Shown here: positions 26,437 through 27,168 of the stretch, piece by piece
How the letters are laid out: each line of letters begins with the position of its first letter
Position numbering within the stretch: the stretch's first letter is position 1
NCBI RefSeq assembly: GCF_030013595.1
Contig: NZ_CP122768.1
Direction: 5' to 3' (one strand)
Length of the DNA stretch: 64,000 bases
DNA from: Escherichia coli
Lineage (GTDB): Bacteria > Pseudomonadota > Gammaproteobacteria > Enterobacterales > Enterobacteriaceae
Position numbers and translations under genes: made by a program
Notes under the pieces: generated by a model
What the model saw: only the letters and a program-made list of their open reading frames with translations
Database searches by the model: none
What the model was told of the DNA's origin: nothing

Positions 26437-26658
26437 TCAGTATCTCGATAAGCGCAGAGAAATGATGCAGTGGTGGGCGGATTGGCTTGATGAAAAAGTG
26501 GAGTAATCCGGACCGTACTTCTTTATCCAGGCATAAAGGCTGTGGGTGGTGATATCGAGACGTGTTGCAACGCTGGCAACAGAATAACCGCGATCAACAA
26601 CCTGTTTGACTGCTTCAGTTTTAAACTCTTCGGGATAACGCTTACCGCTCATGGGCAC
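26437..26658 (-). mobile_element. IS3-family transposase OrfA fragment (degenerate)
   Basis: N-terminal ~50 aa resemble an IS3-family OrfA HTH, then the frame decays. Confidence 0.55.
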
Positions 26659-26689
26659 CTCTCTTTAAGCCATCTTAAATGACTCTGAG

Positions 26690-27168
26690 GTGTCTGTTAA
26701 ACCCGTGGCGATTCAAAACTGCGTGTTACGTTCGCCCTGGACTGTTGCGATCGTGAAGCCATAGACTGGGCCGCAAGCACGGGAGGTTACGATAAAGCGA
26801 CAGTGCAGGATGTCATGTTAGGAGCGATAGAAAAACGCTTTGGCGATAAAGTACCGGAACAGTCCATCCAGTGGCTGACAGATAACGGTTCAGCGTATAG
26901 AGCGCATGAAACACGGCAGTTCGCCAGAGAGTTGAATCTGGAGCCCTGCACAACGGCAATCAGCAGTCCTCAGAGTAATGGAATGGCAGAAAGGTTCGTG
27001 AAAACGATGAAGGAAGACTACATCGCGTTCATGCCGAAACCGAATGTAAGAACGGCATTGCATAATCTTGCAGTGGCGATCGAACATTACAATGAAAACC
27101 ATCCGCACAGTGCGTTGGGTTATCGCTCTCCGCGAGAATATCGACGTCAGCGGGTAACGTTAACTTAA
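26690..27168 (+). mobile_element. IS2-like (IS3 family) transposase OrfB C-terminal fragment
   Basis: DDE-core C-terminus ending [14 protein letters not shown], as in IS2 InsD; frame open upstream of the annotated Met; opposite strand to the OrfA fragment. Confidence 0.6.

Follow-up and report, generated by a model that had tools for sequence, protein, structure and literature searches.

We have analyzed a 64,000 nt stretch of Escherichia coli DNA (the window from here on) and specifically the part that goes from the attachment site of a lambda-like prophage to its tail fibre genes, where fragments of insertion sequences (IS) had been predicted. The features found, ordered by position, are the following:

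24172-25572, bioA, E. coli chromosome, left of the prophage attachment site
25631-26107, ybhB, chromosomal, between bioA and the attachment site
about 26198-26212, core of the lambda-type attachment site (attR side, by ybhB/bioA), aligning to the 'O core of attP' of phage 434
26213-26400, P arm of attP and sib/tI-type terminator hairpin (hairpin at about 26359-26400), 89% identical to the attP-proximal DNA of 434
26423-26504, plus strand, 3' remnant of an intS-like tyrosine integrase, 82 nt, about 27 codons to the stop region
26437-26658, minus strand, chimeric 73-codon ORF, 49 OrfA codons and a last 24 antisense to the intS-like remnant
26498-26511, putative deletion-type joint with the crossover at 26504/26505, located by three-way alignment
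26505-26715, minus strand, nt 1-211 of an ISEhe3-like element: left inverted repeat, 5' UTR and OrfA codons 1-49
26652 down to 26505, minus strand, the 49 genuine OrfA codons
26653-26715, 5' UTR and left inverted repeat, belonging to the element with OrfA
26716-27205, plus strand, nt 847-1336 of ISEc48: OrfB codons 144-293 (26716-27168) and right inverted repeat
27210-27962, minus strand, intact AraC-family regulator (HTH_AraC/HTH_18), convergent with the ISEc48 remnant and not IS-derived
28260-28536, 277 bp of E. coli chromosomal DNA from just downstream of serU
28537-28598, minus strand, 62-nt 3' fragment of a tRNA-Ser (serU type), fossil attR of a serU-integrating phage
28599-28714, phage side of the fossil attR, collinear with the SerU-LTIIb DNA between tRNA-Ser' and the side-tail-fibre genes
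29458-30039, minus strand, tail-fibre assembly gene, beyond the debris

Next to the bio-side genes we found the attP core, the P arm and sib (the phage 434 record carries an annotated terminator at the position that matches the hairpin of the window), and further into the prophage, past the tail-fibre assembly gene, come the tail fibre, J, tape-measure and portal genes. This is the arrangement of a lambda-type b-region by attR, i.e., the prophage is lambda-like and the IS fragments are located within its dispensable b-region, at the bio-side attachment site. Two pieces of IS3-family transposases had been proposed to lie here, and both are present far beyond chance, with 100% and 97.3% matches to intact elements.

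The minus-strand piece (26505-26715) is 100% identical (E=2.8e-110) to nt 1-211 of an intact IS3-family copy of 1,229 bp and keeps 17% of the element. The left inverted-repeat tip, TGAATCGCCACGG, starts at 26715 and reads leftwards. As had been predicted, the N-terminus of an OrfA follows, with 49 residues identical to those of the intact protein and a match to HTH_Tnp_1 (Pfam PF01527) at profile positions 3-48 of 75 (E=1.2e-14). The copy that we have used as reference (L002 2496-3724; 1,229 bp) has perfect 13-bp repeats at both tips, a 3-bp AGA duplication on both sides and OrfA and OrfB with an annotated programmed frameshift. Its termini are of the IS3-family type (5'-TG ... CA-3'), and one of the two repeats is left in the window. 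The OrfA-OrfB -1 frameshift and the DDE (rve) domain, present in the reference, are absent from the window, where the fragment ends at nt ~211, so this is the remnant of an IS3-family member and not a functional member. Megablast with the minus-strand piece retrieved intact copies from many E. coli genomes, and the element is multicopy in E. coli HS. PGAP labels the 1,229-bp element 'IS3 family transposase' and nothing finer. We have used the name ISEhe3-like because of its 88.8% full-length identity to the element annotated as ISEhe3 in Shigella phage SfIV; the E. coli copy, named by phage annotation, is a relative and not ISEhe3 itself. A longer 5' fragment of the ISEhe3-like element is found in the CP4-6 prophage of K-12 MG1655, beside yagB (L008 2408-2727). 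Outside its tip come 8 nt, AAATTGCG, of which 7 agree with those of the window, AAACTGCG, over flanks that are otherwise unrelated. We considered a target-site preference and have taken the likeness as a coincidence, the flank of the reference copy being unrelated.

The whole ORF at 26437-26658 had been described as an OrfA fragment, which is correct for its 49 OrfA codons and not for the last 24, antisense to the intS-like remnant. This chimeric ORF is devoid of the leucine-zipper/coiled-coil (dimerisation) half of OrfA, of the frameshift site and of OrfB. It might still be imagined as a small DNA-binding protein kept for its function, e.g., as a trans regulator of resident ISEhe3-like copies, given that the complete HTH_Tnp_1 core and the native start codon are preserved, that a weak promoter-like hexamer pair is found in the left inverted repeat (26700-26672, minus strand) and that a similar 5' fragment survives in K-12 by yagB. 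We regard this as extremely improbable. The promoter scan was not above chance (4 sites found vs. 5.8 expected), the ORF ends in sequence antisense to the integrase, and the half that is missing is the C-terminal coiled-coil one, in IS911 the part of OrfA needed for multimerisation. Besides, the copies are 99-100% identical, so their conservation is uninformative on selection.

The plus-strand piece comes from ISEc48. Over 490 ungapped nt (26716-27205) it is 97.3% identical, with 13 mismatches, to nt 847-1336 of this element, and the homology stops exactly at the element tip, the right repeat ending ...AAGAACA at 27205. The intact copy used for comparison (L003 1656-2991; 1,336 bp) belongs to the IS2 group of the IS3 family and takes its name from NCBI PGAP; its right inverted repeat presumably resembles that of IS2 itself. 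The piece had been called the C-terminus of an IS2-like OrfB, and the NCBIfam profile NF006918 'IS2 transposase TnpB' agrees with this, covering positions 143-289 of 301 (E=2.9e-71) with 240 bits, a value below the cut-off of 597 bits because the query is a fragment of a relative; full ISEc48 OrfB scores 419 bits. Pfam detected rve/rve_3 in the same fragment. The extent was less accurate. The remnant begins at 26716 (OrfB K144), 5' of the GTG at 26803, and continues past the stop at 27168 up to 27205; before that GTG it has no start codon of its own. Compared with intact ISEc48, the window keeps the last 37%, and with the break at OrfB codon 144 the first catalytic D (WCSD motif) is lost together with OrfA, the frameshift site and the left repeat, so that the complete DDE triad and the pair of inverted repeats of an autonomous ISEc48 are absent. 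The ISEc48 reference is flanked by a direct duplication of 16 bp, CCGCGCTGAATGATCC (L003 1640-1655 and 2992-3007), much longer than the few bp expected for IS2-type target duplications.

Both pieces being of the IS3 family, an OrfA N-terminus and an OrfB C-terminus look superficially complementary, and a single IS that becomes intact when realigned or frameshift-corrected would account for them. This can be practically discarded. The pieces lie on opposite strands and correspond to nt 1-211 of 1,229 bp in one case and nt 847-1336 of 1,336 bp in the other, and their parents share no nucleotide similarity, have different inverted repeats and code for OrfB proteins that are 24% identical. By alignment, partial elements are all that the locus contains, and the divergent reading frames without an intact IS of the original prediction were found as described; the search for inverted-repeat ends gave one repeat per fragment, the other end of each element being deleted and with it any pair of target duplications. 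Neither remnant should be able to transpose or to make transposase, because each has a single inverted repeat and parts of OrfA/OrfB are missing.

The place at which the two pieces meet had been put at ~26660-26690. The true DNA joint is located at 26715/26716, the DNA from 26653 to 26715 being the 5' UTR and left repeat of the minus-strand element. At this right joint the window reads ...CCGTGGCGATTCA/AAACTGCGTG... and intact ISEc48 reads ...GATGGCGAAAAACTGCGTG..., with the terminal base of the ISEhe3-like repeat (TGAATCGCC...) directly touching nt 847 of ISEc48. Judging from the sequence, this would be a transposase-made (transposition) joint, because the exact tip of an IS is found at the boundary and breakage or inversion with random ends would not give this. 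TGGCGA, the six bases 5' of the ISEc48 insertion point, is present also in the ISEhe3-like tip. This coincidence, a single case, may reflect IR-like targeting, which is known for IS911-type elements.

The left joint (26504/26505) was resolved by a three-way alignment of intS (AGGTGGAGTGATCC), the window (AAGTGGAGTAATCC) and the reverse complement of the IS (TAGTGGAAGAATCC). Extending the comparison, intS reads ...AAAGGTGGAGTGATCC/ACCTT, the window ...AAAAGTGGAGTAATCC/GGACC and the IS reverse complement ...TTAGTGGAAGAATCC/GGACC, and the crossover falls inside a 14-nt patch with GTGGA and ATCC as common blocks. The pattern is that of microhomology-mediated illegitimate recombination, i.e., an apparent deletion-type joint. 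The TAA that closes the integrase remnant was created at this joint. The remnant itself matches chromosomal intS at its 3' end with 92-97% identity and is annotated by PGAP as a partial pseudogene. A third joint, at 27205/27206, corresponds to the intact right tip of ISEc48, 4 bp past the stop codon of the AraC-type gene, and is the same in O157:H7.

An insertion followed by inversion or deletion had been proposed for this locus. The types of the joints agree with insertion and deletion, and inversion becomes unnecessary because the direction of insertion would explain the opposite orientation of the fragments. If an inversion had its ends inside IS copies or between them, the same orientation could result; the fragments do lie on opposite strands, and IS elements are able to mediate inversions. 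Nevertheless, it is very unlikely here, since the source elements are two unrelated ISs, the joint is at an exact tip (as expected for insertion either way round), the surroundings contain neither another, inverted copy of one of the ISs nor an inverted repetition of the flanks, and the AraC/ISEc48 arrangement is collinear in O157:H7.

In our opinion the debris very probably represents the dead ends of two different ISs, stacked by one transposition and trimmed by deletion. ISEc48 (IS2 group) would have been inserted first, 4 bp past the stop of the AraC-type regulator gene. In a second step, the ISEhe3-like element would have transposed into the OrfB of ISEc48 at nt 846/847, in the opposite orientation, so that the tip of its left inverted repeat came to lie directly against nt 847 of ISEc48. 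In a third step, illegitimate recombination guided by microhomology would have fused the element at nt ~211 with the region around the stop codon of the intS-like remnant by sib, with loss of the rest of the ISEhe3-like element, of the first 846 nt of ISEc48 and of any DNA between. The joints are directly visible, and from them we infer the order and mechanism of the second and third steps. The ISEhe3-like piece has 0 mismatches to the active copy vs. 13 (2.7% divergence) in the ISEc48 piece, a contrast that fits a later arrival of the ISEhe3-like element, taking into account that 211 nt is a small sample, too short for dating. The debris would persist since the b-region is non-essential, carried along with the phage genome.

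The distribution of the structure among genomes and phages was also analyzed. A 381-nt stretch over both joints was found in 183 of the 5,426 complete E. coli genomes (in IAI1 at 100% identity), and in 175 genomes the arrangement is complete over its 1.3 kb, ybhB to the AraC gene. Both joints appeared together in every one of the matches listed, and none of these had one joint alone. The whole stretch 26194-29460 is also present, at 98.5-99.2% identity and beside their attachment site, in phages mEp332, PhiR70_1 and ev099, which show no substantive difference and represent the free-phage form of the window structure; thus the debris is carried in packaged phage genomes. The rearrangements appear to have been inherited with the phage genome and not made in this lysogen, because the structure is the same in the 183 genomes and in the free phages.

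Beyond the third joint comes the AraC-family regulator, and no other gene in this part of the b-region is intact. The best NCBIfam profiles of the regulator were YdeO and GadX, both below cut-off, and at the DNA level it is 99.3% identical to a gene of the thrW prophage remnant of O157:H7. A review describes patE (z0321, OI-8) of O157:H7 as an activator of acid-resistance genes. The regulator of the window is probably PatE-like, because OI-8 would be the thrW-adjacent island that holds the O157:H7 counterpart, a link made from the locus and from this review. After the gene, the 277 bp at 28260-28536 match the serU locus of essentially all E. coli at ~97% identity and, in prophage SerU-LTIIb, the yodB side of attR at 95%. 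The adjacent tRNA-Ser fragment was not called by ARAGORN or Rfam and was identified by alignment; it is identical to the 'tRNA-Ser (pseudo)' that marks attR in KU052038 (prophage SerU-LTIIb). The region 28260-28714 is a fossil attR with host DNA, left behind by an aberrant excision long ago. O157:H7 has this fossil up to the tRNA-fragment boundary at 28599 and not the phage-side DNA; mEp332, PhiR70_1 and ev099 share all of it.

The thrW prophage remnant of O157:H7 (CP-933H/Sp1 region, OI-8) shares 26732-28599 with the window at 99.3% identity, i.e., ISEc48 remnant, AraC gene, serU flank and tRNA-Ser'. It differs in that ISEc48 is cut 16 nt further in, the integration module is thrW-type and not lambda-type, and there is no ISEhe3-like OrfA piece, only a possible 9-nt tip. 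There, the ISEc48 remnant is joined to DNA normally found 20-188 nt downstream of intS. In the O157:H7 strain H6437 (L004 5990-6010) the joint reads CCCAGA/TGAATCGCC/CTGG, and the middle 9 nt are those of the ISEhe3-like tip; they may be the last trace of a full ISEhe3-like copy.

These data can be interpreted in a different way, in which an ancestor had a complete ISEhe3-like copy between intS-downstream DNA and ISEc48 nt 847 and two lineages lost different parts of it. The ancestral arrangement would go back either to an adjacent deletion mediated by the IS or to two copies of it that recombined with each other; the lineage of the window kept the 211 nt of the left end and that of O157:H7 (thrW prophage) the 9-nt tip from the other end. 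In favor of it, the O157:H7 joint between the AraC-ISEc48 module and the intS-downstream DNA reads ...CCCAGA/TGAA/TCGCCCTGGACTG (also given as CCCAGA/TGAA/TCGCCCTGG), where TGAATCGCC is the same as the 9 nt that open the ISEhe3-like inverted repeat, TGAA comes from neither flanking parent and TCGCC is microhomology with ISEc48, and at both loci intS-derived DNA lies on the same side of the module. If this were the case, the history would gain an IS-mediated deletion or an IS-IS recombination. However, only 4 bases are unexplained (chance ~1 in 256), and the implied flanks AGA and AAA are no duplication, so an extra event is needed. To look for intermediates, we compared three synthetic junctions with the 5,426 complete E. 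coli genomes. No match spanning the junction was obtained in this collection for ISEc48 nt 697-846(+AAA) with the far end of the ISEhe3-like element (no intact nested copy), for ISEc48 nt 447-846 continued through the window to AraC (no longer ISEc48 beside AraC), both of them intermediates of the three-step history, or for intS-downstream DNA with the full ISEhe3-like element, the last being the arrangement of the presumed ancestor. The ancestors carrying the three junctions are thus absent from these 5,426 genomes. On balance we see the complete-copy ancestor as possible, although somewhat unlikely, and keep the three-step history of stacking and deletion as the preferred one.

The intS-like (argW-type) remnant directly by the lambda-type sib terminator is a conserved landmark after which the cargo diverges. 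Phage 434, a CP-933K-like prophage that carries nleD/nleH/nleC and a P22-like prophage all have the same remnant beside sib. The cargo behind it may be nleD/nleH/nleC with an IS256 piece, an acyltransferase and a tailspike or, in 434, NleC/NleH and IS1414 fragments. Phage 434 and the CP-933K/Sp3-like prophage share with the window the P arm, the sib-type terminator, the intS-like remnant and a variable cargo with IS fragments; in the window the cargo is the AraC regulator with ISEc48 and ISEhe3-like pieces, whereas in theirs it is NleC/NleD/NleH effectors with IS1414 or IS256 pieces. The b-region had been proposed as a site of repeated rearrangement, and the varied cargo behind the sib/intS' landmark in other prophages at the lambda attachment site, together with an extra IS1A in strain PI7, supports the view that it is prone to them. 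In PI7 (L010 3533-4230) the prophage is otherwise identical and the IS1A is located between the AraC gene and the tail-fibre assembly gene. In the P22-like prophage of strain A11 (L005 4113-4160), a tandem array of the 8-nt unit GTTTAATA follows the intS-like remnant, replacing the usual sequence.

Taken by itself, the locus is ordinary debris and already known, annotated as pseudogenes in RefSeq and in phage records (PGAP has three partial pseudogenes here, both IS pieces and the integrase remnant), and truncated IS copies in the non-essential b-regions of lambdoid phages are commonplace, textbook material. In annotations, the name transposase gene should be avoided for the 73-codon ORF, and the two pieces are not to be merged into one IS, nor should the stretch be counted as a mobile element. 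The joints also record the order in which the cargo would have been assembled, i.e., capture of serU host DNA, AraC regulator, two IS hits and two deletions, a record that may interest those tracing the spread of PatE-like regulators.

Only tentatively, and with doubts on our side, we suggest a broader reading in which the IS debris is the seam that grafted one cargo block onto different integration modules, the lambda-type with sib/attP here and the thrW-type in O157:H7. The block would consist of the fossil serU attR, the 277 bp of host DNA, the gene of the PatE-like acid-resistance regulator and the ISEc48 remnant. In both the lambda- and the thrW-type cases, the joint of the cargo involves the ISEhe3-like element or (in O157:H7, possibly) its tip. 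If this were true, short-lived IS insertions would serve lambdoid phages as portable sites for recombination when attachment modules are swapped, and a regulator of host physiology, first gained by aberrant excision, would have been passed on by lambdoid phages.

Two minor observations were made elsewhere in the prophage. A strong full-length Rfam match to 'IS009' (RF02111, 227.7 bits) at 29498-29696, on the minus strand, overlaps the 3' part of the tail-fibre assembly gene, and two neighbouring tRNA genes, Thr-TGT and Asn-GTT, are found at 56080-56235, also on the minus strand.
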